Shown here: piece after piece, positions 1,859 through 22,867 of the stretch
Numbering within the stretch: position 1 is the stretch's first letter
How the letters are laid out: every line of letters starts with the position of its first letter
The notes under the pieces: model-generated
Database searches by the model: none
What the model was told of the DNA's origin: nothing
Seen by the model: the letters and a program-made list of their open reading frames with translations, nothing else
Translations under genes and position numbers: made by a program
Source of the DNA: a phage
Sequence record: PZ496580.1
DNA: 64,000 bases
Strand: one strand, 5' to 3'

Positions 1859-3865
1859 ATGACTCTATTATCACCGGGTTTCGAAACGAAAGAAACTACT
1901 CTCTCCACTACCATTGTGCAATCTGCGACTGGTCGCGCGGCACTGGTGGGTAAATTCCAATGGGGTCCAGCTTTCCAGATTGTTCAAGTAACTAATGAAG
2001 TTGAATTAGTTAATAAATTTGGTCAGCCGGATAATAACACCGCAGACTATTTCATGAGTGGGGCTAACTTCCTCCAGTATGGTAATGATCTGCGTGTTGT
2101 TCGTGTACTGAATAAAGAAAAAGCAAAAAACGCAACTGCACTGGCTGGTAACGTAGAGTTTGAAATCACAAACGAAGGTTCAAACTATGAAGTTGGAGAC
2201 ACTATCAAGATTAAACATAACCGTCAAGATATTGAAACGGCGGGTAAAGTAACTAAAGTTGATGGTGATGGTAAAGTTAAGGGCGTATTTATCCCAACTG
2301 GTAAAATTATCGCTCACGCTAAAGCAATCGGTGTATATCCAGAACTTGGTGGCGGTTGGACGGCAGAGTTCACTTCTTCGTCAGGTAACGGTAGTGCGGC
2401 GCTGTCAGTAACTAAAATTGTTACTGATTCCGGTCTTCTGTTAACGGATCTGGAAACTTCCCGCGCCAATATCACAAATCAAACTTTCTTGACTAAACTC
2501 AAGAAGTATGATATGCCAGCGGTAAGCGCGATCTATGCTGGTGAGATTGGCAACTCGCTGGAAGTTGAAATTCTGGCGCGTAGTGCGTTTAAGAACACTG
2601 CACCGGATCTGACCATGTATCCTTATGGTGGCGAGCGCACCGCAGCACGCAACCTGATTCCATATGCACCGCAGAATGATAATCAATATGCATTTATTGT
2701 TCGTCGCGATGGTGTTGTGGTAGAATCCTATGTACTGTCTACTCTGAAAGGGGATAAAGACGTATATGGCAATTCTATCTATATGGACGACTTCTTTGCT
2801 CGTGGTTCTAGCCAGTACATCTATGCAACCGCTCAAGGGTGGGTAGATGGTTTCAGTGGCATTATCTCTCTTGCTGGTGGTGTTTCTGCTAACGAATCCG
2901 CAACTGCTGGTGTTGGTGTTGGTGCTGATCCGTTCATTGGCGCAATGATGAAAGGATGGGATCTGTTTGCTGAACGTGAATCTATTCACGTAAACCTGTT
3001 GATTGCTGGTGCATGTGCTGGCGAAGGCGATGCGTTCTCTACCGTACAGAAACATGCTGTTTCCATCGGTGATGAGCGTCAGGATTGCTTAGTGATGGTT
3101 TCTCCGCCACGTAGCACTGTTGTTAATATTCCGGTCACTACCGCAATTGATAACCTGATTGCATGGCGAGAAGGAAAGAGCAATTATTCAGAAAACAACA
3201 TGAACATTAATACCACTTACGCGGTTATTGATGGTAACTACAAGTATCAGTATGACAAATATAACGATGTAAACCGTTGGGTTCCGTTGGCTGCTGATAT
3301 TGCCGGTTTGTGTGCTCGCACTGATGCTGTATCTCAGCCGTGGATGAGTCCGGCAGGTTATAACCGTGGTCAGATCATGAACGTGGTTAAACTGGCAATC
3401 GAGCCTCGCAAGGCGCACCGTGATCGTCTGTATCAGGCCGCAATTAACCCGGTAATCGGTGCTGGTGGTGAAGGGTTTATCCTGATGGGCGATAAAACCG
3501 CTACGACTGTTCCTAGCCCGTTTGACCGCATTAACGTTCGTCGTCTGTTTAATATGCTGAAAAAGAATATCGGCGATTCAAGCAAATACAAACTGTTTGA
3601 AAACAACGATAACTTTACTCGCGCTTCCTTCCGTATGGAGGTTTCGCAATATCTCAGCACGATTCGCTCTCTGGGTGGCATTTATGACTTCCGAGTACAA
3701 TGCGACACCACGAACAACACGCCGGATGTAATTGATCGTAACGAATTTGTTGCTAGTATGTTCATCAAACCAGCAAAATCGATCAACTATATCATGCTCA
3801 ATTTCACTGCTGTTGCAACTGGTGCTGATTTTGACGAAATTATCGGTCCAGCTAACCAGGCATAA
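1859..3865 (+). CDS. 18: Tail sheath protein (gp18)
   Basis: 668 aa; size and position match T4 gp18; N-terminal MTLLSPGFETKE sheath-like start. Confidence 0.9.
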   Translation: MTLLSPGFETKETTLSTTIVQSATGRAALVGKFQWGPAFQIVQVTNEVELVNKFGQPDNNTADYFMSGANFLQYGNDLRVVRVLNKEKAKNATALAGNVEFEITNEGSNYEVGDTIKIKHNRQDIETAGKVTKVDGDGKVKGVFIPTGKIIAHAKAIGVYPELGGGWTAEFTSSSGNGSAALSVTKIVTDSGLLLTDLETSRANITNQTFLTKLKKYDMPAVSAIYAGEIGNSLEVEILARSAFKNTAPDLTMYPYGGERTAARNLIPYAPQNDNQYAFIVRRDGVVVESYVLSTLKGDKDVYGNSIYMDDFFARGSSQYIYATAQGWVDGFSGIISLAGGVSANESATAGVGVGADPFIGAMMKGWDLFAERESIHVNLLIAGACAGEGDAFSTVQKHAVSIGDERQDCLVMVSPPRSTVVNIPVTTAIDNLIAWREGKSNYSENNMNINTTYAVIDGNYKYQYDKYNDVNRWVPLAADIAGLCARTDAVSQPWMSPAGYNRGQIMNVVKLAIEPRKAHRDRLYQAAINPVIGAGGEGFILMGDKTATTVPSPFDRINVRRLFNMLKKNIGDSSKYKLFENNDNFTRASFRMEVSQYLSTIRSLGGIYDFRVQCDTTNNTPDVIDRNEFVASMFIKPAKSINYIMLNFTAVATGADFDEIIGPANQA

Positions 3866-3899
3866 TCAGTAAATTAGCATAGATTAAAAGTTAAATCAA

Positions 3900-3924
3900 G
3901 CGGGGAGAAAATCCCCGCTCTATT
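3900..3924 (+). terminator. Hairpin GCGGGGAGAAAATCCCCGC plus T-rich tail after gene 18
   Basis: Perfect inverted repeat followed by TCTATT. Confidence 0.5.
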
Positions 3925-3938
3925 AAGGAATATCAATT

Positions 3939-4433
3939 ATGGCACTCGATTTGAATGATATTACACGCGGTTTCGAGTCTGGCGATTTTGCTCGTCCTAA
4001 CCTGTTTGAAGTTGAGATCCCTTATCTGGGGCAAAACTTTAAGCTGATGTGTAAAGCGGCAACTGTCCCTGCTGCAACCGTAGAAAAAATCGCTATAGGT
4101 TATCAAAACCGTAAAATTAACATCGCTGGCGACCGTGTATATGACGACTGGACCATCACTGTATTCAACGATGACGCGCACAAGATCCGTGATGCTATCG
4201 TTGCATGGAGCGATCAGACACATGGCACTGGATCGGCGATCACTGGCGCAACTCCTGCACAATATAAGAAACAAGCTATTGTTCGTCAACTTAACCGTAA
4301 CACCGAATCAACTAGCGAAAAAACATTGTACGGTATTTTCCCGACCAACGTTGGTGAAGTAACCCTAGATTGGGAACAAAACAACGAAGTTGAAACGTTT
4401 GAAGTTACTTTTGCTATCGATTGGGTAGAATAA
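3939..4433 (+). CDS. 19: Tail tube protein (gp19)
   Basis: 164 aa; size and synteny with T4 gp19. Confidence 0.85.
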   Translation: MALDLNDITRGFESGDFARPNLFEVEIPYLGQNFKLMCKAATVPAATVEKIAIGYQNRKINIAGDRVYDDWTITVFNDDAHKIRDAIVAWSDQTHGTGSAITGATPAQYKKQAIVRQLNRNTESTSEKTLYGIFPTNVGEVTLDWEQNNEVETFEVTFAIDWVE

Positions 4434-6057: not shown

Positions 6058-6276
6058 ATGAAACAATTTATCGAAGCAATTAAAACTCGCGATCTAACGC
6101 TGATCGAAAAAGAATTTGATAAGATCATGGAGGCTAAAAAAGCCCAGATCATCGAATCCCAGCGTGTCGAAATCGCATCCAGTGTCATGATCGAAGGTGA
6201 AGAAGAAAAAGACCGCGATGATGAGGACGACGAAGATCACAAAGACGATAAAAAAGACAAAGAAGACGACGAATAA
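6058..6276 (+). CDS. 67: Prohead core protein (gp67-like), acidic C-terminus
   Basis: 72 aa; position between 20 and 68; highly acidic tail. Confidence 0.6.
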   Translation: MKQFIEAIKTRDLTLIEKEFDKIMEAKKAQIIESQRVEIASSVMIEGEEEKDRDDEDDEDHKDDKKDKEDDE

Positions 6277-6288
6277 TAGGAAGCCAAC

Positions 6289-6696
6289 ATGATTAAAGAT
6301 TTTACTCCTAAAGCTGACTTGGAAACTTTTCTGCCGGAAGCACAGGAAAAATTGGACATGTTGGCTATGTTTGAGTCAGAAGAACTATTGAAAATCGTTG
6401 AAGGTATCTCCGAAGATGAGCCAGAATTGGCTGTAGCAATGTTGTCTATTATCGACGGAATTACTGTAAACGAAGCAATGGTTAAACATGTAAACGCACG
6501 CGGGGAAGTTGCACGTAAGAAAGATCGCAAAACCCGTGAGCGTAATGCTTACATGACTACTGGCCTAAGCAAAGCTAAACGCCGTCAAATTGCCCGTCGT
6601 GCTGCAAAAACCAAACGTGCAAATCCATCTATCGAACGTCATGCGGAACGTAAACGCAAAAAAGCAATGCGCAAACGTAAGGCGTTAGGATTATAA
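6289..6696 (+). CDS. 68: Prohead core protein (gp68-like), basic C-terminus
   Basis: 135 aa; synteny; Lys/Arg-rich C-terminal tail. Confidence 0.6.
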   Translation: MIKDFTPKADLETFLPEAQEKLDMLAMFESEELLKIVEGISEDEPELAVAMLSIIDGITVNEAMVKHVNARGEVARKKDRKTRERNAYMTTGLSKAKRRQIARRAAKTKRANPSIERHAERKRKKAMRKRKALGL

Positions 6697-8288: not shown

Positions 8289-9875
8289 ATGAAAACTACC
8301 AAAGAACTGATGGAAAAATGGTCCCCGCTGCTGGAGAACGAAAAACTGCCGGAAATCGCAACTGCGTCTAAGCAGAAACTGGTTGCTAAAATTCTGGAAT
8401 CTCAGGAAGCGGATTTTGCTGTAGATCCGATCTATAAGGATGAAAAAGTTGTTGAAGCATTTGGCGGCTTTATCACCGAAGCAGAAGTTGCTGGCGACCA
8501 CGGTTATGATGCATCCAAAATCGCCGCAGGTCAGACTACTGGTGCAATCACCAACGTAGGTCCGGCTGTTATCGGTATGGTTCGCCGTGCTATTCCTAAC
8601 CTGATCGCATTTGATATTTGTGGCGTTCAGCCGATGAGCACCCCGACTAGCCAGATCTTTGCAATCCGTTCTGTGTACGGTGGTGATCCGCTGGCTGAAC
8701 ACGCTAAAGAAGCATTCCATCCGATGTACTCTCCGAATGCGTTCCATAGCTCTCTGGCTGCTAAAGGTGCAACCACTGGTTCCCCTACTGGTACTGCATT
8801 TGGTAAATTAACTCTGCAAACTGCTATTCCTACTGGCGATATTGTATATCACGTATTCGCAGAAACTGGTATTGCATATCTGCAAAACGTAACTGGTGAA
8901 TCTGTAACACCACAGAAAGCAGGTAGCGAATCCGAAGATGAAGTAGTAATGAAGCTGATGGAAGAAGGTAAACTGGTAGAAATCGCTTTCGGTATGGCTA
9001 CCTCTATTGCCGAAATTCAGGAAGGCTTTAACGGTTCTCGTAATAACCCGTGGGCTGAAATGTCAATGCGTATTGACAAACAGGTTGTTGAAGCGAAATC
9101 TCGCCAACTGAAAGCCCGTTATTCTATCGAAGTTGCGCAGGATCTGCGTGCTGTACACGGTATGGATGCTGACGCTGAACTGAATGCTATCCTGGCTAAC
9201 GAAGTTCTGCTGGAAATCAACCGTGAAATCGTTGACGTTATCAACTTTACCGCACAGGTTGGTAAGACTGGCATGACTCAGACCGTTGGTTCTAAAGCTG
9301 GTGTATTTGACCTGCAAGACCCGATCGATACTCGCGGTGCTCGTTGGGCTGGTGAATCCTTCAAATCTCTGATCTACCAGATCGACAAAGAAGCTGCTGA
9401 AATCGCTCGTCAGACTGGTCGCGGTGCTGGTAACTTTGTTATCGCTTCCCGTAACGTTGTAAACATTCTGGCTTCTGCTGATCAGGGTATCAGTGTTGCT
9501 ATGCAGGGTGCTGCAAAAGGTCTGAATACCGACACCACTAAAGCTGTTTTCGCTGGTGTTCTGGCTGGTAAGTACAAAGTATTCATCGACCAGTATGCTC
9601 GTCAAGACTACTTCACCGTAGGTTACAAAGGCGACAACGAAATGGATGCTGGTATCTACTATGCGCCGTATGTTGCTCTGACTCCGCTGCGTGCGACTGA
9701 TCCGCAGTCTTTCCACCCGGTTCTGGGCTTCAAGACTCGCTACGGTATCGGTATTAACCCGTTTGCAGACAGCAAAACCCAGGCACCGTCCGCTCGCATC
9801 ACCTCCGGTATGTTGAGCAAAGACAGCGTAGGTAAAAACGCATACTTCCGCCGTGTATGGGTTAAAGGTTGCTAA
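8289..9875 (+). CDS. 23: Major capsid protein (gp23)
   Basis: 528 aa; size, composition and position match T4 gp23. Confidence 0.95.
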   Translation: MKTTKELMEKWSPLLENEKLPEIATASKQKLVAKILESQEADFAVDPIYKDEKVVEAFGGFITEAEVAGDHGYDASKIAAGQTTGAITNVGPAVIGMVRRAIPNLIAFDICGVQPMSTPTSQIFAIRSVYGGDPLAEHAKEAFHPMYSPNAFHSSLAAKGATTGSPTGTAFGKLTLQTAIPTGDIVYHVFAETGIAYLQNVTGESVTPQKAGSESEDEVVMKLMEEGKLVEIAFGMATSIAEIQEGFNGSRNNPWAEMSMRIDKQVVEAKSRQLKARYSIEVAQDLRAVHGMDADAELNAILANEVLLEINREIVDVINFTAQVGKTGMTQTVGSKAGVFDLQDPIDTRGARWAGESFKSLIYQIDKEAAEIARQTGRGAGNFVIASRNVVNILASADQGISVAMQGAAKGLNTDTTKAVFAGVLAGKYKVFIDQYARQDYFTVGYKGDNEMDAGIYYAPYVALTPLRATDPQSFHPVLGFKTRYGIGINPFADSKTQAPSARITSGMLSKDSVGKNAYFRRVWVKGC

Positions 9876-10036: not shown

Positions 10037-10345
10037 ATGCACACACTTATAAAGACCAAAACTCCAGCCGTTTCCGCGTCGGTAAACTGCGTTCATAGTA
10101 CGCACATGACAGTACAGATGACCGTAGAAGGTGCGCGGGAAGGGCAAAAAGTCATTGCGGAAGCCTCGTTAGAAGGTTCTCTAGATGGCAAAGGTTGGTT
10201 CACTATTTCAGAATTGAAAGCTGATGGTAATGAATATGCAACTGATGGTGGAGCGTTTGAAACATTATGGTCATTTATTAGGGCAAAAGTAAAATCTGTT
10301 TCTAATGATTCTACTGTAACCGTGTATCTTGCTAAACGGGGGTAA
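10037..10345 (+). CDS. Hypothetical late protein (102 aa)
   Basis: ORF with SD GGGGAG; first gene of the module inserted between 23 and 24. Confidence 0.5.
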   Translation: MHTLIKTKTPAVSASVNCVHSTHMTVQMTVEGAREGQKVIAEASLEGSLDGKGWFTISELKADGNEYATDGGAFETLWSFIRAKVKSVSNDSTVTVYLAKRG

Positions 10346-10352
10346 TTATTAT

Positions 10353-12083
10353 ATGAAGCTAAATCCACAAGCTATCATTAATGCTGGTTCCGTGAGTGGT
10401 GGTTGTTCTGGTGGTGGTATTCAGATCGGAACTAACGTACCTAGTGGAATTAAAAATACTCACCGTTTCGAAAATGAAGAAGCTAGGGATGCATATTTTA
10501 CCGAACATTTTCCAGAATTGGAGAGACTAAAAACAATTATTGTTTGTGGCGAAAAACTCCAATTATGGACGGGTAAAACAGCACAATCTCCCTACGATAA
10601 ATCAAAATGGGTCGATATGACCTGGGTTATTCAGGGTGAACAGGGTATTCCTGGTGAGAAGGGCGAAAATGGTCGTGGTATTGCTAAAATCGAAGCGAAT
10701 TTGTCCGAGGACGATCGCAACTGGACTCTAGAAGTCACGTACTCAGACGGAACACAGGAGTCTCTTGTATTTCCAGTACCAGAAGTATTAGCTAACGTTG
10801 CGCAGCGTCTATCTGCAATTGAAGTAAAATGGACTACGACGAATCCGATTAATAATCTGGATGTAACCACATCACCCGGACGCTATCCGGTAGGTGATGC
10901 AACCTATGGCAAACCTCCAATGATGGCGAATAAGGGGTCCGCAGATGTATATGTCGTTGATGGTAGCATTCTTCAAGTGGTCCGTTCTATTGATGGTGGT
11001 GTTTACTCTCGTATCCGACACAATGGTGCATGGCGTGAGTGGAACTCTCAAAGCGGGGAAGGAAGTGGTGGCGGTGGTTTAAATGGTGATCAGGAGGCGA
11101 TGTTAACCAGTCTGGGTAAACGTCTACCTGAAATTTCACCCGAAACACTGGACCTAAACACCTTGACTAAACAAGGCCGTTTCTGTTACTTTGAGGGGTC
11201 GGCAAACCGTCCAAATGGAACACAAACACATGGTTCTGTAGATGTTCATGCATGTAAAGATCATGTATTGCAGATCGCAACAAGCATTGATGGCGTAATG
11301 TATCACCGTTCCTATACAAAGAGAACTGATCTATGGACCGAATGGTTGCAGATCAGCGATCACACTGGCGGTGCTACCATTTATGCATTCCCTCGTGTAT
11401 CAAGCGTGTTTACTACGGCACAAAACCTGATAGAAGTAACTAATCCAGGAACAGGGAACGGTTCATTTTATATTCCGTGGAAATATGTTATTCATGATAA
11501 CTATGGATGCACACCACAAATAAAAGAGCCACAAAGACAGGAAGACGCTGATCATTGGTGGGTCGCGCCTAAATCCGGTAGCTATGATATGGAATTGCTT
11601 TTTGATGTTGGATTTATTAAAACACAACAAACAATTCCACCAATTTTCGTAGTAACTGCATGGCACAGGACCAATGAAGGAAATGAGCGATTAGCCGCTC
11701 GTTATAATATCGGTTTTGACGTATCAACAAAAAACCAAAAAACCAAATCTCTAAAATTGAGATTGAATCAAATACCATCCGGTGAGATGTTCCGCTGGCA
11801 AGTTACATTTAGCGGTGGTAGTTGGTCATCAAACGATAACCCAGATGTTTCACTTGTACCATTCCGCACATTGCTGATGGTCGACGAAGTAGAACACGAC
11901 ACAGCAAAACGAGTTGGTGCATTGGCGTATAACACATGGGCTAACTTCCAAGCTAAAAAAGGTCTCGCGGCAACCGTAGGTGAGGATGAACTACAAAAAG
12001 CTCGTCTTAACGCGGTTAAATGGGGTGCTATCATCGAAAGCGTTGAAGCAACTCCACAACCAGGCCAGCAACCAGTGCAATAA
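10353..12083 (+). CDS. Fibre-like protein with collagen-like Gly-X-Y run and repeated knob-like segments
   Basis: ATG at 10353 with SD GGGGG (track ORF begins at an upstream TTG); GEQGIPGEKGENG triplets; two similar segments (SILQVVRSIDGGVYSRIRHNGAWREW and HVLQIATSIDGVMYHRSYTKRTDLWTEW). Confidence 0.55.
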   Translation: MKLNPQAIINAGSVSGGCSGGGIQIGTNVPSGIKNTHRFENEEARDAYFTEHFPELERLKTIIVCGEKLQLWTGKTAQSPYDKSKWVDMTWVIQGEQGIPGEKGENGRGIAKIEANLSEDDRNWTLEVTYSDGTQESLVFPVPEVLANVAQRLSAIEVKWTTTNPINNLDVTTSPGRYPVGDATYGKPPMMANKGSADVYVVDGSILQVVRSIDGGVYSRIRHNGAWREWNSQSGEGSGGGGLNGDQEAMLTSLGKRLPEISPETLDLNTLTKQGRFCYFEGSANRPNGTQTHGSVDVHACKDHVLQIATSIDGVMYHRSYTKRTDLWTEWLQISDHTGGATIYAFPRVSSVFTTAQNLIEVTNPGTGNGSFYIPWKYVIHDNYGCTPQIKEPQRQEDADHWWVAPKSGSYDMELLFDVGFIKTQQTIPPIFVVTAWHRTNEGNERLAARYNIGFDVSTKNQKTKSLKLRLNQIPSGEMFRWQVTFSGGSWSSNDNPDVSLVPFRTLLMVDEVEHDTAKRVGALAYNTWANFQAKKGLAATVGEDELQKARLNAVKWGAIIESVEATPQPGQQPVQ

Positions 12084-12099
12084 TTAGCGGGGGTGATTG

Positions 12100-13032
12100 A
12101 TGACCGATATTAAAGCAAAGATCAGTAAGTTGCAAAATGATTTTGTTCAAGGTGAAATTACACATTTCACTGGTAATGAGTCTAATGCTCTAATGGAAAG
12201 TGATGTTGAAAGAATTTCAAATTCAATCAACACTCAGTTAATAGATCCTGTAATTGATTTTGTTATTGCGTGTGATGACGTAATATCAGAAACAGCAAGT
12301 TCGGCACACCGAACGGCAGAAGTCGCAAAAAATACGGCTGATGTTGCGGATCGAACGGCTGGGCAATCTATGAGCAAAGCAACTGATGCACTGACTAAAG
12401 CGACTACCGCAGAATCGGAGGCAGCACGAGCACACAGCCGATTAGATGGATTGAATATTCCACAATTGCCAAACCTAGACAATCAAACATGGAATTGGCT
12501 ATCACGTTCATTTGATAGTGTCAGTATTAAGCCAGCCGTAGGTGTGACTCTTGTCGATCCTGTAAGCGGAAAACCACACATCACATGGACACCAATTAGA
12601 CAAAACTTTGAAACTGGTCGGTATTACGTGGAAGGGCGTTTTGAGGCTAGATTTAAGGTTATGCTAATGGACTGGACACAATCTTCACAAGGTGGTCATA
12701 TTCATTATCTAGGTGGTGGTCAAAGTCTGGCGTCATTTAATGGACGAGTAGAACTATCTGGTTTGTCTAACGATGTAATGAAACCAACCAACATACAGGT
12801 CAATGCATATACGGCAAAAGATACTCAAGTAATTTTTGGTGCATGTGCTGACGCTGCGATCTCAAATTCTAATGAGATTAAATTAGCGTTCATGGTTGAT
12901 ATTGGGTCGGATCGATTTGATAGATTTACAGATCCGGTTTATGTCGACCTTGTTATGACATTCCAGCGTGACGCTAGCGGTAATTTTGGTTTTGGTACGC
13001 TGTTCCCTGAATTAACCCCAAATTCTCCATAA
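12100..13032 (+). CDS. Fibre-like protein with Ala/Thr/Ser-rich N-terminal repeats
   Basis: ATG at 12100; N-terminal TAEVAKNTADVADRTAGQSMSKATDALTKATTAESEAARA resembles tail-fibre stalk repeats. Confidence 0.5.
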   Translation: MTDIKAKISKLQNDFVQGEITHFTGNESNALMESDVERISNSINTQLIDPVIDFVIACDDVISETASSAHRTAEVAKNTADVADRTAGQSMSKATDALTKATTAESEAARAHSRLDGLNIPQLPNLDNQTWNWLSRSFDSVSIKPAVGVTLVDPVSGKPHITWTPIRQNFETGRYYVEGRFEARFKVMLMDWTQSSQGGHIHYLGGGQSLASFNGRVELSGLSNDVMKPTNIQVNAYTAKDTQVIFGACADAAISNSNEIKLAFMVDIGSDRFDRFTDPVYVDLVMTFQRDASGNFGFGTLFPELTPNSP

Positions 13033-13203
13033 GGAGGAATGCATGAGTAAGAAAGAAAACAGCTATGTTATGACTCGTAAGGAATACGACGAATTGATGT
13101 TAGCATTAGCTTATGCAATTATTCGTTCTGATCATGCAATTAATCTGGTAAACAAAGTTAACCGTAGCGTTGATAATGTTTCTAGGAAGAAGTAATTTTA
13201 TTT

Positions 13204-13234
13204 GGGAATCCTTCGGGATTCCCTTTTCTTTTTG
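13204..13234 (+). terminator. Hairpin GGGAATCCTTCGGGATTCCC plus T-run after the fibre-like module
   Basis: Perfect inverted repeat followed by TTTTCTTTTTG. Confidence 0.55.
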
Positions 13235-13242
13235 TATAAATA
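13235..13242 (+). promoter_or_regulatory. Late promoter TATAAATA upstream of gene 24
   Basis: Exact TATAAATA 38 nt upstream of ATG 13280. Confidence 0.5.
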
Positions 13243-13279
13243 TGATATATCCATTAAGGCAAATACAGGATTCATAAAC

Positions 13280-14521
13280 ATGACTCATATTTTTACTGAA
13301 CTGTTGCGGGAATCTACTTCCTCAGTAGCTAACCAGACAGCGCGACCGCAACTATTATCATTAACTCGCGCGGTAAACAACCTGATTTTCTCTGATCTGG
13401 TAGCAATCCAGCCAACGGATCAACCAGTGTCTGCATTGTACGGCCTACGCTATCTTAACCGTGATGGTCAGATGACTTTCCGGTCCGCTGCAACCTATGG
13501 TGGCGCGGCTGGCGATCGCACAGAGATCGAAGAGTTTTCAAAAGAAAAATCTTATGACGAAGGCGCATTATTCAAATCAGGCGATGTTGTATACGAAGTT
13601 GTGACCGCTGGTACAGTCGGTGAAGATGCCGCAACTCCAGAAGCTGCGATCTTTAAAGGCGTAATGACGAATAAAATTCGTTTCTATAGCGATTGTGCAT
13701 CGGTAGAATACTTTGAAGATAAAAACACAGAAATTGCGTCTACCTCTATGCAGTTTGACAAGTGGCAAGTTAATGTAGGTTCTCGTAAACTGAAAACCTC
13801 GTTCACCACTGAATTAATGCAGGATCTTGAAGCAAGCCAAATCAACTCGGAAAACTCTGTAATTGATCTTCTGGCTACTGTCGCTTCCGAAGAGATCAAC
13901 AAAGATATTATACAGAAGTTGATCACTGTATCATCTCGCTATAAAATTAAAGGAATCACCCCTGATGGCGTACTTTCTCTAGTTAGCGTTCAGGATGCAC
14001 CGAAACAAGCTCGAGAACTTTACCGCTACGCGTGCGAAATGAGCAATCAAATGTTGCGTACTTCCTCCTTTGCTGGTACATACGTTTTGGCGTCTTCTCG
14101 CGTGGTTGGCCTCCTGCAATCTACCGGATGGATGGAAGAAACCGACAACGCTCTAAGCGAAGGTCGTCTACGTTGCGGTCTGGAAGTGTACGCAGACACG
14201 ACAACACCTTTCGATTATATGCTCGTTGGTTGTAAGCACATGATCGGTGATATGGAGAGTGTAGGTTCTCTGTTCTACTCCCCATATACAGAAGCCGACG
14301 GCGCTGGCGCGTATAAGAGCGTAATTGACCCTAATAGCTTCCAGCATCATGTAGCTATTATGAATCGTTATTCACTCTCTGTCAACCCATACACATCAAA
14401 AGTTGATCAGGAAGCACACCAGATCATCAAGGGTGACGATTGGGGTAAAATGGCTGGACGTTCAGAAATGTCCTACATTTTAGGAATCGAACTGCCACCG
14501 CTTGAGATTGACAACGCTTAA
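13280..14521 (+). CDS. 24: Capsid vertex protein (gp24)
   Basis: 413 aa from ATG 13280 (SD AGGA); similarity to T4 gp24 (ELLRES..RP.L..LTRA...L..SD.VA.QPT.QPV). Confidence 0.85.
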   Translation: MTHIFTELLRESTSSVANQTARPQLLSLTRAVNNLIFSDLVAIQPTDQPVSALYGLRYLNRDGQMTFRSAATYGGAAGDRTEIEEFSKEKSYDEGALFKSGDVVYEVVTAGTVGEDAATPEAAIFKGVMTNKIRFYSDCASVEYFEDKNTEIASTSMQFDKWQVNVGSRKLKTSFTTELMQDLEASQINSENSVIDLLATVASEEINKDIIQKLITVSSRYKIKGITPDGVLSLVSVQDAPKQARELYRYACEMSNQMLRTSSFAGTYVLASSRVVGLLQSTGWMEETDNALSEGRLRCGLEVYADTTTPFDYMLVGCKHMIGDMESVGSLFYSPYTEADGAGAYKSVIDPNSFQHHVAIMNRYSLSVNPYTSKVDQEAHQIIKGDDWGKMAGRSEMSYILGIELPPLEIDNA

Positions 14522-15109
14522 CTAAATATCTAACCAAGACAAGTCAGATCCGCCCAAGATTTTTTCGACGGCGGATCTATTTTCTTGATGATATAAGTTA
14601 AAACATGGTATCCCATGTCTACGGGCAACATAAACAGCAATTCGAGTCCCGCCAGAAACAATCCCATTAACTTCTTTCGCCCAGAATAACACACAATCTA
14701 CAGGATCATCAAGTGTCTCACCTAAGACTTGAGCAACATTTCTAGAAAACAGATTTTGCATGTATAACGGTATAGAACGAGGATTATCATAAACGTGTTC
14801 TAATTCATCCATCGCCAGATCTTTTTGTTCTAAGGTTTGCCATGCAATCACATCATGACCGTTATGCTTGTGGTCATAAAACTTCCAATTTGGAATGAAA
14901 ATTTTTCTATAATCTGGATCGTAATACTTCATGAAAGCATTGTCCATACCGTAAGCCCCTCCAGAATGCGCTACAACGCGATTTTCTGACAATACCCTCC
15001 CAATGGTACTAGCCATTATCAAAATGTCGCTAGGAGCTTTTCTAGAGCCGATTAAAGCACATCTACGAAGTGGTTTTACTCCAAATAGATCTTGTAACTG
15101 GTCAAACAT
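14522..15109 (-). CDS. DprA/Smf-like (SLOG-fold) Rossmann protein
   Basis: 195 aa; IGSRKAP...HSGGAYGMD and VSGGTRIAVYVA motifs resemble the DprA/LOG nucleotide-binding core; SD GGAGG. Confidence 0.45.
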   Translation of the reverse strand: MFDQLQDLFGVKPLRRCALIGSRKAPSDILIMASTIGRVLSENRVVAHSGGAYGMDNAFMKYYDPDYRKIFIPNWKFYDHKHNGHDVIAWQTLEQKDLAMDELEHVYDNPRSIPLYMQNLFSRNVAQVLGETLDDPVDCVLFWAKEVNGIVSGGTRIAVYVARRHGIPCFNLYHQENRSAVEKILGGSDLSWLDI

Positions 15110-16282: not shown

Positions 16283-16479
16283 CACTTCGCCCCATTGACG
16301 ATTAACAGGATAGTGATCAGTACCGGAAACTGGATCATGACAGTACCAAAAAACCGGATAAACGCATTTTCTGACTTCCACACATGACATGCGACTAGCT
16401 GATAGACCATTGTTGCAACCAAAGCCAGAAAATACATCTCGATTGGTGCTTCTTTGATCAATCGTACAATCTCATTCAT
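16282..16479 (-). CDS. Small membrane protein (65 aa)
   Basis: Two hydrophobic segments; SD GAGGTG. Confidence 0.4.
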   Translation of the reverse strand: MNEIVRLIKEAPIEMYFLALVATMVYQLVACHVWKSENAFIRFFGTVMIQFPVLITILLIVNGAK

Positions 16480-16624
16480 ACTTCACCTCATACATTCATA
16501 AACACAACAACGAATAGGACAGTAACAGTTATTAAAGCCATTTTCAACCCCATATTCATAATATTTTCCTCATAGGGTAACGCCCTGTTGATGTTTGCCA
16601 TTATAAGCCACTAAATCACACTGT

Positions 16625-16653
16625 CAAGCACTAAAAACAAAAAAGCCACCCCG
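16625..16653 (-). terminator. Rho-independent terminator after the short Hoc paralog
   Basis: Hairpin GCCATCCTTCGGGGTGGC plus T-run on minus strand. Confidence 0.55.
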
Positions 16654-16674
16654 AAGGATGGCTGATAAATTTCA

Positions 16675-17901
16675 TTAAGCAGGAGGCGTTTCACGAATCC
16701 GTAGGACACGCTCTAATGTCTCGCGATCCAGCTTGTGGAACTCTTTGGACTGATACATGAAACCATTGCGAGATTCCATGCAAGTGCAATCACTATATTT
16801 TTCTTCCGCTGCCGCGATTGTCTCCAGATCTTTGGCGTACTTGCTGGTTGAATAAACTTCTCGGTGACGCCACTCTAAACCAGCCTCATTGAATTTAACA
16901 ATCTCGTCAAATACCCACCATCCAATATAGATGAATGAAGTTTTGCGCCACGGGATCGGGTGCACGTAACGGAACATTTTATGAAGAGATTCAACAACTT
17001 CCATTGAACACTTTCTGCTTGTACGTGCTGCAAGTTCTACTGTTGCGTCTTCGATCTGTTGATATAGTTTAGCAACACACCAGAATTTGGCTGTATCATC
17101 GTAAGTAGCACGCTCTTTGAACAGATGACCGTCTGGCATGATAGAAAATCCTTCCAGTGCTTCGCCGACCTCACTACCGATCAGAGTCGGTGACGGTTGC
17201 CCTTCGCGCTGCAAATACCAGTTATGTTTGATCGTCAATTTAGGCATACCGCTAGAATCGCCTACAATGTCCTCTGACACAACATAATTAAGTAAGATCT
17301 CCTTACCTAGTGCTACGGTCTTTGATTCCACCACATCCTGATCTACGCTCATTGTAGCCAGCATGATTTTAGTGGATGCGCTATCGGCTGAATCTTCCGA
17401 TTCGCCCCATACTTTGACAGTATACACGCCGTTGTTATCTGCTGTAAATTCTTGGATCGTGATATCCTGTGTCGTGTCTATAACTTCTTCGCCCTTACTC
17501 CAACTATAATGTAGTTCATAATTGTCTGTTGGAGTCTTCCCGCCAGAAAATTTTACTGTTGCATGTAATTCTACGTCTGTTTGTGTTGGTACGTAGAATT
17601 GCGGCGGTTCGGTGATCTTAACGATTAATTCAGCTTCTTCCATACGGAAAACGTCAGATTCTACCGATTCCCCGCTATCGGTATCTTGCACAGTGACTTT
17701 ATAGTTACCCGCATTTTCACTTGTTGCACCTGCTACAGTTAGCGTAGCGGTGTTATTTTCGTGTGGTTTGTTGTCTTTTGTCCATGTATAGGTCAAATTG
17801 CTGGGTAATGGTTCGTCACCTGCTACCGTCGCTGTTAATGTGAAACCATCTCCAGCAAGAAAACATCTTTTGTCAGATTTAATTGATACTGTGAAAGCCA
17901 T
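16675..17901 (-). CDS. hoc: Hoc-like outer capsid protein (3 Ig-like domains)
   Basis: N-terminus MAFTVSIKSDK resembles T4 Hoc MTFTVDITPK; C-terminal YVHPIPWRKTSFIYIGWWVFDEI...ESRNGF matches the T4 Hoc capsid-binding domain; start placed at second ATG with SD. Confidence 0.8.
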   Translation of the reverse strand: MAFTVSIKSDKRCFLAGDGFTLTATVAGDEPLPSNLTYTWTKDNKPHENNTATLTVAGATSENAGNYKVTVQDTDSGESVESDVFRMEEAELIVKITEPPQFYVPTQTDVELHATVKFSGGKTPTDNYELHYSWSKGEEVIDTTQDITIQEFTADNNGVYTVKVWGESEDSADSASTKIMLATMSVDQDVVESKTVALGKEILLNYVVSEDIVGDSSGMPKLTIKHNWYLQREGQPSPTLIGSEVGEALEGFSIMPDGHLFKERATYDDTAKFWCVAKLYQQIEDATVELAARTSRKCSMEVVESLHKMFRYVHPIPWRKTSFIYIGWWVFDEIVKFNEAGLEWRHREVYSTSKYAKDLETIAAAEEKYSDCTCMESRNGFMYQSKEFHKLDRETLERVLRIRETPPA

Positions 17902-17916
17902 ATAAAGCCACTCCAT

Positions 17917-17940
17917 AGAAAAGCCGCCCCGAAGGACGGC
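17917..17940 (-). terminator. Hairpin terminator after the large Hoc paralog
   Basis: GCCGTCCTTCGGGGCGGC hairpin with short T-run on minus strand. Confidence 0.4.
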
Positions 17941-17950
17941 ATTTAATTAA

Positions 17951-20491
17951 TTAAAATAGTTGAGTACCATCAACCAGATAACCATTACGAGATTCCAATA
18001 CATGAGTATTAGAATAGTGATGCAACGAGGCTGCAATAGTCTCGATCTCGTCCGGGTATTTGGTATGTTCAAAGTCTTCTAACCAGTTAAGCCCTTCTCG
18101 GTTGCAACGATCAATTTCATCAAGTACCCAATAGCCTTGATACTGGAACGAAGTACGACGCCACGGAATCGGGTGTACATAGCGTTTTAATTTCGCGGTA
18201 GTAAACACTACACGAACTTTTTCACTATGTTTAACATGTCCTTCGTCGTCAGTAATTTCTGCATAATAGGTTGCTTGATGTGTCTCCTTGCTAATTTGTT
18301 CTTTAGGAATAGTATACACCTTACTATTAGCACCCTCAATAACAGTATCTTTACCGCCCTGAATTTTATGCCACTTCCATTGAACTTCTTTTTCATCATC
18401 AACGTGTTCGGCATGAGCTTCTAAGGTAATATCCTGTTTCTGTCCTTCTTTAGCAACCACATCCACCGGATGTTTCAGAATATTGATATTTGAATGATGA
18501 GTCATTGTCACTAATGCAGGATTAGATTCAATGGTATTCTCACCAGCCGTAATTACCGCTGTGTAGCTGCCTACGTCAGACGGTTTTGCGTGTTCAATAA
18601 TCAATACATCTGAATTTGCACCAGGAATAATCTCACCGTCTTTTTTCCATTGATATGATGGTTTAATACCAATAGATGTTTGTGCGGCAGCGTGTAACAT
18701 AATTTTTTCATTATATTTCACATGCGCATCTTGTGGGTGAGTTGTGACTGCTAGGTCATTTGGAACAACCGTCACATCGTCGGAGATCAATACCCTAACC
18801 GCCTCTGACATTTTAGAAACTCGATGTTCACCGAATCCAGCCGATACACGGCATGTATAAACGCCAGTAGATGTTAATTGTGCATGGTCTTCGCCGTATA
18901 CGTTTCGTTGTTCAATTCCTGCTGGGAAAAGATCCTCACCATCTTTAAACCAACGGTAGCGAACTGGTAAAGCATCGTTAGACGTTGCTTTGATCGTCAG
19001 CGCCCATTGTCCACCTGAACGAACTTTAACGGCTTTAGGTTGTACAGTGATTTCAAGATTAGCCTTTGAGTTGTCTACCGTCACCTGAACTTCGTTAGAT
19101 TCCTTAGAAATACGATGATTCTGTATACCCATAGAAACCTTACATTTATAACGTCCTTCGTCAGATTTGGCGATTGAAGAGAAATGTAATGTTTTAGCAG
19201 TTTTACCCGGTAATAGTTCATCGTCTTTATACCACTGATAATCAAGTTTATAATGCTCGTAGGTAGTTTCTGCCTCACAAATTAAAGTTTGTGAAGAACT
19301 AACGCGAACGTTATTGATTGCTTGTGGTTGTTTCGTGATTCTAATTTCAGGTGCAGCACCAACTAAAAGATCGGCCTCGTCCGAGTCTGCGACTTGATTG
19401 TCGCCATAAGTGACTTTAGCCTTATATTTCGCCTGATTTAATTCTTGCGTAGCAGGTGTAATATGAAGATCTTTATTTGTTGCGCCAACAATTGGTTTAA
19501 ATTCCGGTTCCCCATTTTTCTTGATGTACCATTGAACTTTTACCGGTTCGTAGTTGGTTGCAAAATCAACACTGAACAAACCTAAAGCACCAGCACCAAC
19601 ATTTATTGTGAGTGGTTGTTTAGTGAAGCGGAAAAACGCTCGTCCTTGTATTGTAACATGACAATCTTTCGAATAGACCGTAGTTTCTGCTTGACGAACT
19701 TCAAGACGCCAAACACCCTCGTCTTTTTTGGTTACATGTGGTATGATCAGTGCGGTCCCGTCTTGTTCCAGCACCATCCTGTCATTATGAATCCACACGT
19801 AAGACAATGGTCGCGTTTTATCGTCTGTCGTGACAGACACTTCAAGATCCAATCGCGTGTCCTCTGCCACTGTAACCGCTGATGGGTAATGTTCCTGAAT
19901 ATGAACTTTAGGAGCATCTTTATTTTGTTCCACTACTACCGGACTGATCCAATAGTGAGAACGTGCATCATCGGTAACAAATACCTTACAAGTATAGTTA
20001 CCAAAATCCTCATAACCAACTCGATCTACATGGACGTTTTTTTCTCTAACTTTATTAGGATCTAACTGAATGTGGTTTTTATACCAAATAGTATCAAATT
20101 GCTTGTTATCTTCGATGAACGGAGTAACAAAAATATCCAATTCTTCGCCTAAACGCTTATAAATGTAGGTCGGAGATTGATCCTGTGGTGCAAGGAAGGT
20201 GCGACGTTCAACAAGAATAGGCTTAATATCAACCGATTCAAGCGGATTATCTTTCAGCTTAACTTTCGCTGTATACGTGCCGAATTGATCTTGAGTCATT
20301 TCAGCAATATACAGAGATTGATCTGGTTCTGCAACCTGATCTGATGGTACGCTTTGACCGTTTAGCTTCCATTCTACGATATAGTCTTTAAAATCTGCGG
20401 TACTTACTACGAGCTTAAGAACAAGTTCATGTCCTACAGACGCGTAGACCGGACCCATAGTTTGATGTAAAATGTTGATTTTATCAGACAT
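17951..20491 (-). CDS. Giant Hoc-like protein with expanded Ig-like array (about 846 aa)
   Basis: Repeated Ig-like segments (recurring W-x-K/R-D/N-G and Y-x-C-x-V patterns) and C-terminal Hoc capsid-binding domain YVHPIPWRRTSFQYQGYWVLDEI...ESRNGY; start at ATG 20491 with SD AGAGGA. Confidence 0.75.
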   Translation of the reverse strand: MSDKINILHQTMGPVYASVGHELVLKLVVSTADFKDYIVEWKLNGQSVPSDQVAEPDQSLYIAEMTQDQFGTYTAKVKLKDNPLESVDIKPILVERRTFLAPQDQSPTYIYKRLGEELDIFVTPFIEDNKQFDTIWYKNHIQLDPNKVREKNVHVDRVGYEDFGNYTCKVFVTDDARSHYWISPVVVEQNKDAPKVHIQEHYPSAVTVAEDTRLDLEVSVTTDDKTRPLSYVWIHNDRMVLEQDGTALIIPHVTKKDEGVWRLEVRQAETTVYSKDCHVTIQGRAFFRFTKQPLTINVGAGALGLFSVDFATNYEPVKVQWYIKKNGEPEFKPIVGATNKDLHITPATQELNQAKYKAKVTYGDNQVADSDEADLLVGAAPEIRITKQPQAINNVRVSSSQTLICEAETTYEHYKLDYQWYKDDELLPGKTAKTLHFSSIAKSDEGRYKCKVSMGIQNHRISKESNEVQVTVDNSKANLEITVQPKAVKVRSGGQWALTIKATSNDALPVRYRWFKDGEDLFPAGIEQRNVYGEDHAQLTSTGVYTCRVSAGFGEHRVSKMSEAVRVLISDDVTVVPNDLAVTTHPQDAHVKYNEKIMLHAAAQTSIGIKPSYQWKKDGEIIPGANSDVLIIEHAKPSDVGSYTAVITAGENTIESNPALVTMTHHSNINILKHPVDVVAKEGQKQDITLEAHAEHVDDEKEVQWKWHKIQGGKDTVIEGANSKVYTIPKEQISKETHQATYYAEITDDEGHVKHSEKVRVVFTTAKLKRYVHPIPWRRTSFQYQGYWVLDEIDRCNREGLNWLEDFEHTKYPDEIETIAASLHHYSNTHVLESRNGYLVDGTQLF

Positions 20492-20568
20492 GTAATATCC
20501 TCTTTTTAATTGCATAACGGAACTACAATTAAAAACATAACAAATATTTCACAACTTTTACGCTCTTA

Positions 20569-21294
20569 TTATTTAAGAGTGTGGAATTGGCTGTGTTTAG
20601 TCTCTCGCACCTTGACAGACCCATCACGTTTGATATAATAGATCAGTGACTTGAGGGTGTCGTGTACATACGCGTGAGGGAAACGCTCTGGATACTTCTT
20701 CCAATCTGGAGTATTAACGATCCAGTCGAAAATCCACCACGGGCAGGAGTAGTAACCACGACCGCCACCGATCAAGCAAATGGTCGGACGGAAGCCAGTA
20801 AGATCGCAAAATGAATCAGTGTCATGTGCTGGGGAACGATGCTCTGCTTCGTCGGAGAAAATGTTTGCTACCGGAGATTCCACTTTAACTTCCGGTGCTT
20901 CTTCAACATCTGACTTAACTTCTTCGACCACTGGTTCAACTGCTGGAGATTCTTCTTTTGTTTCTTCAATGACGATCTCAGGTTCTTTCATTGCTTCAAC
21001 CAGAGACGGATCAACTTCGTCGAATACCACTTTATCATCTGCGGTGTCTGCTGCCAGAATAAGATCGTTAATACTGGTTCCTTCTTCTTGGGTTTCTTCT
21101 TCCATTTCGGAAGCCAGTTTAGTTAATTCGGTTTCTACGAACTCGATCATGTTCTCTAGCGATAGCGTCTTTTTGACCTTGATATCAAATTGTTTTGCAT
21201 AGTCAGCTAATTCTGTTTTAGCTGTTTTCTGTGCTTCTTTGTCGTCGGACGCCGCAATAGCGCGGAGTTCTTCGAAATATTCTTTATCAAACAT
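20569..21294 (-). CDS. Acidic protein, Inh-like by position only
   Basis: 241 aa; very acidic middle; lies between hoc and uvsW where T4 has inh; assignment by synteny only. Confidence 0.35.
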   Translation of the reverse strand: MFDKEYFEELRAIAASDDKEAQKTAKTELADYAKQFDIKVKKTLSLENMIEFVETELTKLASEMEEETQEEGTSINDLILAADTADDKVVFDEVDPSLVEAMKEPEIVIEETKEESPAVEPVVEEVKSDVEEAPEVKVESPVANIFSDEAEHRSPAHDTDSFCDLTGFRPTICLIGGGRGYYSCPWWIFDWIVNTPDWKKYPERFPHAYVHDTLKSLIYYIKRDGSVKVRETKHSQFHTLK

Positions 21295-21320
21295 GTTATT
21301 CTCCTGATTGGGGGTGTTTG

Positions 21321-21328
21321 TATAAATA
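21321..21328 (+). promoter_or_regulatory. Late promoter TATAAATA upstream of uvsW
   Basis: Exact TATAAATA 37 nt upstream of ATG 21365. Confidence 0.45.
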
Positions 21329-21364
21329 TTTGTATACTGTATTTATTGAGTGAGGCTATTCGCT

Positions 21365-22867
21365 ATGCAAGATATTAAAATTCACTTTCTGAACTACTCC
21401 CATGTTCAAATTGAATGTAGCGATTCAATTTTATTAGAAATGCGAGATTATTTTAGTTTTGAAGTCGAGGGAGCAAGATTTCAAAAACGATTTAAGTACG
21501 GCGGTTGGGATGGGCGTATTCGTCTTTTAGATTACAATGGAAAGCTGCCAATCGGCCTAACTAAAACCGTGGGAATTTTCGCTAAAAATATGGGCTATAG
21601 CGTATGGGTAGACCCTCGCTTATTCGAGAAAGAACAGGTTACAGAAGAAGAGATCACAAAATGGTGTAACGACTTAGAATTATATTCCGGTGCTAACAGG
21701 ATCACCCCGCATTGGTATCAATCAAAGGCTGTCTTTGAAGGTATTCATCATAAACGCCGTATGTTAGTTTTGCCTACGTCCGCTGGTAAATCTGCGATTG
21801 CTTGTATGTTGTCTCGCTGGTACTTAGAGAACTACGAAGGGAAAGTGCTGATCATCGTTCCTACCACGTCGCTAGTGCTGCAAATGCGTGATGATTTTGT
21901 TGATTATCGCCAGTTTCCTTATGAAGCAATTCATACTATCATGAGCGGTACTAGTAAACACGTAGGTGATCGCCTGATCGTTGTTAGTACGTGGCAGTCT
22001 GCATGTAAACAACCTCGTGAGTGGTTCCAACAATTCGGGATGGTTATTGTTGACGAATGTCACAAGGCCACTGCTAAAAACCTGCTAAACATCGTTACTG
22101 ATATGGAACATTGCCAATTTAAGATCGGTATGACTGGTTCCCCTCGTGACGGGAAAGCTAACATGATGCAGTATGTCGGGCTGTTCGGTGATATTTCTAA
22201 GATCGTGAGTATTGACCGCCTGATGGAAGAAGGCCAAGTTACGAAACTGAAAATTAACTGTCTTTTCCTTCGTTATACCGATGAGGAATGTAGCGCGGTT
22301 AAGGGGAGAGAATATGCGGAAGAGATCAAGTATATTACATCTAACCCACGACGAAATAAGTTTGCTTGCAATTTGGCGCTAAAACTCGCTAAGAAGGGCG
22401 AAAACGTATTCCTGATGTTCCGCAACACTAAGCACGGAAAACTTATGTATGATGCGTTACAGAAGGTACACGACAAGGTTTATTATATTGACGGTGGAGT
22501 TAAGACAGAAGAACGTGATGAATTTAAGAAAATGGCGGAGGGTGACACCGGGATCATCTGTGTTGCGTCTTATGGTGTGTTCTCTACTGGTGTTTCAATT
22601 AAGAATTTGCACCATGTTATTTTCGGTCATCCAGTGAAGGAATCAACTATCGTTCGTCAGAGTATCGGTCGTGCATTGCGTAAACATGGTTCTAAAGACA
22701 TTGCAACGGTCTGGGATCTTATCGATCATTTGGCGGTTAAGACAAAGAGCAAGAATGCTAAGAAACAGTTTAGCCACCTTAATTATGCTCTTAAACATGC
22801 GCTTGAAAGAATAAAAATTTACAACACCGATCGATTCGAATATGTCACGAAAACAATCGAGATTTAA
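21365..22867 (+). CDS. uvsW: UvsW helicase
   Basis: MQDIKIHF start matches T4 UvsW MDIKVHF; helicase motifs PTSAGKS, DECH, GSLRDGKAN conserved. Confidence 0.9.
   Translation: MQDIKIHFLNYSHVQIECSDSILLEMRDYFSFEVEGARFQKRFKYGGWDGRIRLLDYNGKLPIGLTKTVGIFAKNMGYSVWVDPRLFEKEQVTEEEITKWCNDLELYSGANRITPHWYQSKAVFEGIHHKRRMLVLPTSAGKSAIACMLSRWYLENYEGKVLIIVPTTSLVLQMRDDFVDYRQFPYEAIHTIMSGTSKHVGDRLIVVSTWQSACKQPREWFQQFGMVIVDECHKATAKNLLNIVTDMEHCQFKIGMTGSPRDGKANMMQYVGLFGDISKIVSIDRLMEEGQVTKLKINCLFLRYTDEECSAVKGREYAEEIKYITSNPRRNKFACNLALKLAKKGENVFLMFRNTKHGKLMYDALQKVHDKVYYIDGGVKTEERDEFKKMAEGDTGIICVASYGVFSTGVSIKNLHHVIFGHPVKESTIVRQSIGRALRKHGSKDIATVWDLIDHLAVKTKSKNAKKQFSHLNYALKHALERIKIYNTDRFEYVTKTIEI

Follow-up and report, generated by a model that had tools for sequence, protein, structure and literature searches.

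The 64,000-nucleotide (nt) phage sequence PZ496580.1, referred to here as the window in its full length, encodes two adjacent homologs of the highly immunogenic outer capsid protein Hoc. One is a short protein of 408 amino acids (aa) with three immunoglobulin (Ig)-like domains, and the other a long protein of 846 aa with eight, each array being followed by a Hoc C-terminal domain (CTD). Hoc is a standard, dispensable Ig-like capsid fibre that is used in phage display and vaccine platforms and is central to the mucus-adherence model. The evidence presented below makes it probable that both genes encode working Hoc fibres, that they belong to one late transcription unit and that their products compete for the gp23 hexamers, giving a mixed coat.

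Megablast places the window in Krischvirus (RB49-like, T4-type coliphages), with phage Brandy as the best match over the hoc region (94.5%). This part of the window corresponds to the T4-type head and recombination region, with the order gene 24, a DprA-like gene, 24.3, short hoc, long hoc, inh, uvsW, uvsY and gene 25. The order from 24 to uvsW is the same in RB49, and the hoc pair sits between inh and 24.3, at the canonical hoc locus. A first-pass annotation of the window had described two neighbouring minus-strand genes, of Hoc size and of about twice that size, both ending in a Hoc capsid-binding domain. Both open reading frames (ORFs) were found at the positions given there and the lengths of 408 and 846 aa were confirmed with the likely ATG starts (Table 1), while the long gene, which that annotation had allowed might prove interrupted, has an unbroken reading frame in the ORF listing. 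The predicted isoelectric points (pI) differ, the short Hoc being the more acidic (4.8 vs 5.8).

The short protein, with three Ig-like domains and a CTD, is orthologous to RB49 Hoc, of which the three N-terminal Ig domains have been crystallised (PDB 3SHS, E 6e-178 over residues 1-303). PHROG 1149, labelled 'Hoc-like head decoration', was matched by the short Hoc with E 1.6e-78 and by the long Hoc with E 1.8e-52, and PHROGs 14282 and 11091, which bear the same label, also match both proteins; overall, the two are 28% identical (E 3e-23). The Pfam families Ig_2, Ig_3 and I-set match both Hocs as well, with multiple such domains in the long one (Ig_3, E 1.8e-38). The AlphaFold2 model of the long Hoc, built from 14 family members, shows eight successive beta-sandwich blocks with a predicted local distance difference test score (pLDDT) of ~80-90, and the translation of every block contains a strand-C Trp and the strand-F motif Y-x-[CA]-x-[VI]. 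Thus, the expanded Ig array proposed for the long protein was borne out by both the Pfam matches and the strand pattern of the model, at eight domains against three. In Foldseek, the top matches of the long Hoc were long Ig arrays such as those of contactin, Robo, DSCAM and titin. The Ig domains of the Hocs share at most 34% pairwise identity, evidencing that the array is old and without recent internal amplification; a recent duplication of the array was considered and rejected on account of this low identity and of the lack of a protein-level tandem-repeat signal.

The capsid-binding domain of T4 Hoc spans residues ~281-376. With respect to the C-terminal ends, phmmer searches against T4 Hoc (5vf3_Z) matched its CTD to residues 310-384 of the short protein (E 5.4e-11) and to residues 718-844 of the long one (domain E 1.1e-10), in agreement with what had been read from the letters. 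Among the motifs cited on that occasion, YVHPIPWR and ESRNG occur in both proteins, whereas GWWV.DEI holds exactly only for the short Hoc, the long one having GYWVLDEI. Within the full-length AlphaFold2 model the long CTD was of low confidence (pLDDT below 50). When remodelled alone with AlphaFold2 on 17 aligned CTDs of the long, short and T4 types, it reached a pLDDT of 89.6 with the element order beta-beta-helix-helix-beta-beta, that is, a four-stranded sheet plus two helices. The sole Foldseek match of this model at E<=0.001 was the T4 Hoc CTD in its capsid-bound form (8t1x_X; template modelling score, TM, 0.75; root-mean-square deviation 1.6 A). The long CTD model has therefore the fold of the T4 Hoc CTD, and the short CTD is 53% identical to the long one.

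The residues of T4 Hoc that contact the capsid or hold the contacting loop are Y293, H295, R300, W309/W310, D313 and E355-S-R-N-G359 (PMC10385173). All of these are present in the short Hoc, and the long Hoc keeps all but W309, which is Tyr, or Phe in some alleles; all 17 aligned CTDs share YVHP, R, W310, D and ESRNG without change. The long and short CTDs are mutual best matches (49-53%), with those of RB16-type phages and Slopekvirus close behind (~47%), and thus would be, by a small margin, each other's closest relatives among phage Hoc CTDs, which fits paralogy; the long gene may go back either to a duplication in this lineage or to acquisition. Altogether, sequence and structure prediction support, as far as they reach, the earlier reading of both genes as true members of the Hoc family. 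On a separate note, a metagenomic protein of 394 aa (P0090, on a 1956-nt contig) carries a long-type CTD that is 90% identical to that of the window and is itself Hoc-sized, with room for about three Ig domains. As this protein has only 394 aa, the long-type CTD also circulates on short fibres, and P0090 may have originated either by internal deletion of the Ig array or by domain shuffling.

The evolution of both genes was examined by comparing the window with JK32, Brandy, UPWr_E1, RB49 and Phi1. The ratio of nonsynonymous to synonymous divergence (dN/dS) was 0.11-0.13 for long hoc and 0.05-0.20 for short hoc, so both are under purifying selection. The CTD is the most constrained part, with 95-96% aa identity to UPWr_E1 vs 47-75% in the Ig domains, and the short Hoc CTD retains 95-97% aa identity even against divergent alleles. 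In the comparison of long hoc with JK32, synonymous divergence (dS) is 0.02 in Ig1 and 0.75-1.6 in Ig3-Ig5, and this sharp variation along the gene evidences recombinational mosaicism between alleles. The long-hoc allele of the window is a new mosaic, with 94-95% aa identity to the nearest deposited one and blocks of much higher dS in Ig3-Ig5.

A search of a large protein collection returned a long-Hoc family of 13 clusters at 60-94% identity, all of them 841-847 aa long. Over 14 members of this family the mean pairwise identity is 91% in the CTD and 60-74% in the Ig domains. The metagenomic contigs that encode the members at 60% and 71% identity have the same order inh, long hoc, short hoc and 24.3, and both genes have been kept together and intact over saturated synonymous divergence (dS above 1.5). 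A homolog search of a 5.8-billion-protein index with the long CTD alone retrieved only two small proteins, both of them scar ORFs of the RB49 type described below, and CTD diversity was taken instead from the search with the full-length short Hoc.

Among 59 Krischvirus records of a GenBank phage collection, a long-type CTD at >=90% identity was detected in six. Both genes lie in annotated regions of JK32, Brandy, UPWr_E1 and G2248 (vB_EcoM_G2248), while in SSG23 and SFHK24 the match covers the entire two-gene region (93.9%). In these GenBank relatives the same pair appears in the same order with 75-94.5% nucleotide identity, and in Shigella phage JK32 both genes are annotated as 'Hoc head outer capsid protein'. 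The comparison with the hoc loci of related phages, suggested as a check by the first-pass annotation, thus recovered the tandem pair in six Krischvirus records.

In the remaining records, RB49 and Phi1 among them, the match is confined to the short gene and the last 119 nt of the long gene. Direct alignment showed that in RB49 the long-hoc ribosome-binding site and ATG persist along with the 11 initial codons, and that the final ~118 nt of the gene follow out of frame. The Phi1 scar retains ~33 codons, and its right-hand junction is that of RB49. Relative to Phi1, RB49 carries a further deletion between CAGAA repeats, and it looks to have been derived from a Phi1-like state by this second small deletion. 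The hypothetical ORFs RB49p168.2 (65 aa; PHROG 32100) and phi1p168.1 (54 aa; PHROG 19377), whose PHROGs are both labelled 'unknown function', are these scars of long hoc, and the stop codon of the remnant ORF is mutated from TAA to CAA. Since RB49 and Phi1 carry remnants of long hoc, two Hocs represent the ancestral state of Krischvirus and the RB49 type is a deletion derivative.

In the window, an 18-nt GC-rich hairpin with a UUCG loop lies between the two genes, its end being 5 nt before the ribosome-binding site of short hoc. A hairpin is found at this site in 7 of the 7 two-hoc loci compared, with differing stem sequences, and its stem covaries: four of the eight pairs changed on both sides, 94.6% of the cells are paired, none of 500 shuffles attained the covariation score and slid registers collapse. 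The hairpin has the same form as the three other UUCG terminators of the window, was independently labelled a terminator by the annotators of G2248, and is degraded in RB49 and Phi1, the phages without long hoc. The UUCG terminator that precedes gene 24 has a TATAAATA late promoter after it, whereas the inter-hoc hairpin has none. Past short hoc, a strong intrinsic terminator with a long T-run is identical in all Krischvirus loci compared and would constitute the end of the operon.

In the coding orientation, no exact TATAAATA was found from the region upstream of inh to the start of short hoc in any of eight loci, nor was any promoter motif detected from the hairpin to the short-hoc start. 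Late-promoter motifs with one mismatch keep their position across loci only upstream of inh. An internal late promoter for either hoc gene was considered and rejected, as the one-mismatch matches inside long hoc are not kept in all alleles. Because no conserved promoter lies inside long hoc, read-through is favoured over an internal promoter, which we infer rather than observe. Based on these features, a single late transcription unit can be proposed in which inh would be the first gene, followed by long hoc, the hairpin, short hoc and, at 16644-16663, the strong terminator. The hairpin may act as a leaky terminator or as a stabiliser of the mRNA 3' end, and in this way attenuation could set the long:short ratio of mRNA and protein.

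Hoc of T4-like phages binds the mature capsid as a monomer in the middle of gp23 hexamers, with one Hoc per hexamer in T4. The gp23 of the window is 95% identical to that of RB49 and the docking loop is identical in both; compared with T4 the loop has two differences and T4 D336, P337 and R344 are kept. The Hoc docking site of T4 is formed by gp23 Gly326-Arg344, for which the contact residues have been given, and RB49 Hoc is reported to bind T4 capsids in vitro (PMC10385173), from which it follows that the Hoc-gp23 interface tolerates this divergence. As the gp23 site is unchanged and both CTDs are conserved, the simplest expectation is that a single site per hexamer is competed for, and the two Hocs most likely compete for the same hexamer-centre position. 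Competition or fibres of two lengths, which the first-pass annotation had put forward on condition that both proteins bind hexon centres, would thus be the likeliest outcome. According to the proposed model, each Hoc would dock through its CTD at the centre of a gp23 hexamer, the short one projecting three Ig-like domains and the long one eight, at ~155 shared sites if the capsid geometry is as in T4. Virions with such a mixed coat would display short fibres of ~18 nm and long fibres of ~40 nm, lengths that were scaled from the 180 A of the four-domain T4 Hoc and that, for the ~40 nm, apply if the long fibre is equally extended. Through the variable Ig arrays, virions may adhere weakly, and at two reaches, to surfaces such as those of bacteria or mucus.

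Several points weigh against this proposal. The long gene has been deleted in ~90% of the sequenced Krischviruses (~53 of 59 GenBank records), and because ~50 viable isolates beside RB49 and Phi1 have lost it, long hoc is dispensable, at least on laboratory or enrichment hosts. The long CTD has Tyr or Phe at the position of T4 Trp309 and Tyr at that of Trp306, and its affinity may differ as a result of these changes. With regard to transcription, the U-tract after the UPWr_E1 hairpin is weak (UUAACG) and termination there may be negligible, and no TATAAATA late promoter was found on the minus strand (16400-21500) upstream of either hoc gene or inh; with the canonical motif absent, the transcription model rests on one-mismatch motifs. 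In addition, a literature search turned up no two-hoc Krischvirus for which virion proteomics, imaging or transcripts have been described.

Alternatively, only one paralog might reach the capsid in meaningful amounts, by higher affinity or expression or by condition-dependent use, so that virions would in essence carry one fibre type at a time. A single docking site per hexamer is compatible with this, as are the differences at CTD contact positions (W309 is Trp in the short and Tyr or Phe in the long Hoc, and Q354 is Met or Leu), the 27-aa tail past ESRNG in the short Hoc, and the terminator-like hairpin, which could strongly lower short-hoc mRNA. However, purifying selection on both genes and their joint maintenance over dS above 1.5 are hard to explain if one of them never enters the virion, and both have good ribosome-binding sites, so we consider this alternative unlikely, if by no means far-fetched. 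It seems improbable, on the other hand, that the two Hocs do not compete but partition between non-equivalent sites (vertex-proximal or cap vs mid-section hexamers), or that the long one binds a different partner. The sites are not all equivalent in T4, where hexamers near the vertices depart from 6-fold symmetry and Hoc takes preferred orientations on them (PMC10385173), and the CTDs of the window are only 53% identical; against this, neither protein has changes in the ESRNG loop at the capsomer axis or in the residues holding it, the gp23 loop is the same as in the single-Hoc RB49 and no second docking motif was found.

The frequency of deletions and scars among the GenBank records could also indicate that the long gene is being lost as a dispensable passenger, with no role in the virion. 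Such a passenger would hardly be expected to have an intact ORF in every carrier, a dN/dS as low as that measured, a mean CTD identity of 91% and a length of 841-847 aa across 60-94% identity, and in assembly data short-Hoc alleles of the 408-aa type, which in GenBank are the partners in two-hoc loci, are abundant, on contigs of 168-170 kb; this explanation is accordingly very improbable. That the pair is an artefact of assembly or annotation, e.g., a collapsed or duplicated repeat, can practically be dismissed: no point in its support was found, the paralogs are just 28% identical overall, and the arrangement recurs in metagenome assemblies and in six GenBank genomes, all of them independent.

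The proposal of two working fibres competing for gp23 may be extended to a regulated two-length adhesion coat, in which the long fibre would make the first contact and the losses in the RB49 lineage would represent one coordinated simplification; we regard this extension as distinctly unlikely. In such a coat, the leaky terminator would fix the ratio of ~40-nm to ~18-nm fibres per capsid, and the long fibre would serve as first-contact adhesin reaching across layers of O antigen or mucus. Together with a co-inherited module between genes 23 and 24, the long fibre could underlie the capacity of two-hoc Krischviruses, among them Brandy49, to infect strains shielded by O antigen without having it as their receptor (PMC9569957). 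The long gene, the hairpin and this module would then have been lost together in the RB49 lineage, simplifying the virion surface.

The module in question comprises two extra plus-strand ORFs, one of ~577 aa with one short Gly-X-Y stretch and the other of 310 aa with a coiled segment of alanine-zipper or tail-fibre-like type, whereas the same gap in RB49 holds only a 50-aa ORF. It is present in all six long-hoc GenBank phages, that is, Brandy, SSG23, SFHK24, UPWr_E1, G2248 and, as a divergent copy, JK32, and both metagenomic two-hoc contigs have an ORF of homolog size adjoining gene 24. RB49 keeps internal fragments of the module (window 11531-11689 and 12871 onwards), and PHROG 20809, labelled 'unknown function', is a remnant of the 310-aa ORF. 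No relatives of the module ORFs were found in Pfam or PDB, the ~577-aa ORF being without PDB relatives. Homology of this ORF with the collagen-like ORF196w that lies beside the second Hoc of phage VR7 was rejected, as they have only a 15-aa Gly-X-Y stretch in common. The linker of the short Hoc also varies among Krischviruses: the alleles of two-hoc phages are 408-414 aa long and have ESLH or a similar sequence before the CTD, and the RB49-type protein, of 404 aa, is without these four residues (~304-307 of the short Hoc, window ~16981-16992). One and the same RB49-type lineage is marked by its shorter linker and by the loss of the hairpin, of long hoc and of the 23-24 module.

Table 1. Features of the hoc locus and related elements; positions refer to the window except where another locus is named.
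Feature	Position	Strand	Remarks
Short hoc, open frame	16675..17916	-	413 aa
Short hoc, gene	16675..17901	-	Likely ATG start at 17901; 408 aa, 46 kDa; begins MAFTV as RB49 Hoc
Short Hoc CTD	16678..16992	-	aa 304-408; YVHPIPWR, GWWVFDEI, ESRNG; 27-aa tail past ESRNG
Short hoc ribosome-binding site	17911..17914	-	GGAG, 9 nt upstream of ATG 17901; kept in all loci compared
Long hoc, open frame	17951..20515	-	854 aa
Long hoc, gene	17951..20491	-	Likely ATG start at 20491; 846 aa, 96 kDa, pI 5.8; eight Ig-like domains and CTD
Long Hoc CTD	17954..18190	-	aa 768-846; YVHPIPWR, GYWVLDEI, ESRNG
Long Hoc Ig array	18191..20491	-	aa 1-95, 96-190, 191-285, 286-381, 382-477, 478-579, 580-668, 669-767 (AlphaFold2 secondary-structure blocks)
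Long hoc ribosome-binding site	20498..20504	-	AAGAGGA, 6 nt upstream of ATG 20491; persists in RB49 and Phi1 scars
Long-hoc remnants	RB49 (L001) 6187-6384; Phi1 (L004) 3811-3975		Window equivalents 17951-18069 and 20460-20491
Inter-hoc hairpin	17917..17940	-	GCCGTCC-UUCG-GGGCGGC, then UUUUCU
Strong intrinsic terminator past short hoc	16633..16663	-	AGCCATCC-UUCG-GGGUGGCU and long T-run; putative operon end
inh (prohead protease inhibitor)	20569..21294	-	Directly upstream of long hoc; synteny with RB49 inh
gp23 docking loop	9288..9344	+	Residues 334-352, GSKAGVFDLQDPIDTRGAR; T4 gp23 Gly326-Arg344 by alignment
Two extra ORFs	10329-13032	+	Between gene 23 (8289-9875) and gene 24 (13202-14521)

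Other features were noted around the hoc pair. At the position of rnlB (RNA ligase 2) in T4 and VR7, the window encodes a 195-aa DprA-like protein (14522-15109, minus strand), as does RB49; its Pfam match to DNA_processg_A is weak (E 8e-5, under the gathering score). Within the 3' end of inh there is a sigma-70 promoter of perfect consensus (20612-20639, plus strand; TTGACA, 16 nt, TG-n-TATAAT), on the strand opposite to inh and hoc and directed towards uvsW. It is kept in RB49, Phi1, JK32, Brandy, UPWr_E1 and G2248 and could provide early antisense transcription over inh or early expression of uvsW. A further consensus promoter (16600-16627, minus strand; TTGACA-16-TATAAT) lies directly past the short-hoc terminator, is kept in all aligned Krischvirus loci and presumably drives the small downstream genes of the 24.3 region early in infection.

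Genomes with two Hocs have been described before. Serratia phage Muldoon encodes a 1174-aa Hoc with ten Ig domains and a 314-aa Hoc with two (PMC10385173, section 3.6), and thus resembles the window in combining a long and a short Hoc of differing Ig number; this likeness, which is by description, extends to another genus and to other domain counts (here eight and three). Enterobacter phage PG7 also has two Hoc-like proteins (PMC10385173), but in its long protein an N-terminal CTD is fused to a GDSL lipase, whereas both Hocs of the window are of the Ig-then-CTD type. In Escherichia phage VR7, hoc is adjoined by the Hoc-like ORF197w; however, that pair is convergent, unlike the head-to-tail tandem of classical Ig-then-CTD fibres found here. 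T4 Hoc (5vf3_Z, 8t1x_X) shares with the Hocs of the window the string of Ig domains followed by a capsid-binding CTD, the position beside inh, the CTD fold and the key residues, but T4 has a single hoc gene for a protein of 376 aa with three Ig domains, in contrast to two genes here, one of them with eight, and CTD identity is ~38%. RB49 Hoc (PDB 3SHS) is closest to the short Hoc, with 92% aa identity, three Ig domains and a CTD, and the same locus; it differs in its 404-aa length without ESLH before the CTD, and RB49 has no intact long partner, only the deletion scar. In total, Hoc CTDs were matched at 1601 places in 1344 phage records, an excess that is partly made up of RB49-type deletion scars.

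The two-Hoc phenomenon is therefore already published (Muldoon, PG7) and the Krischvirus pair is already deposited and annotated (JK32), whereas the literature search found no paper on the Krischvirus hoc pair, its loss in RB49 or the hairpin. None of these results overturns current understanding. Still, RB49, the phage used for structural work on Hoc, is a derivative that lost a second Hoc with eight Ig domains, and PHROGs 19377, 32100 and 20809, of 'unknown function', are leftovers of deleted genes of the structural region. The covarying hairpin between the hoc genes would offer a simple and testable way in which the ratio of the two proteins could be set. Because it combines an E. coli host, a crystal structure of the short partner and natural deletion derivatives such as RB49, the Krischvirus pair is a convenient system in which to learn how two Hocs may share one docking site per hexamer.

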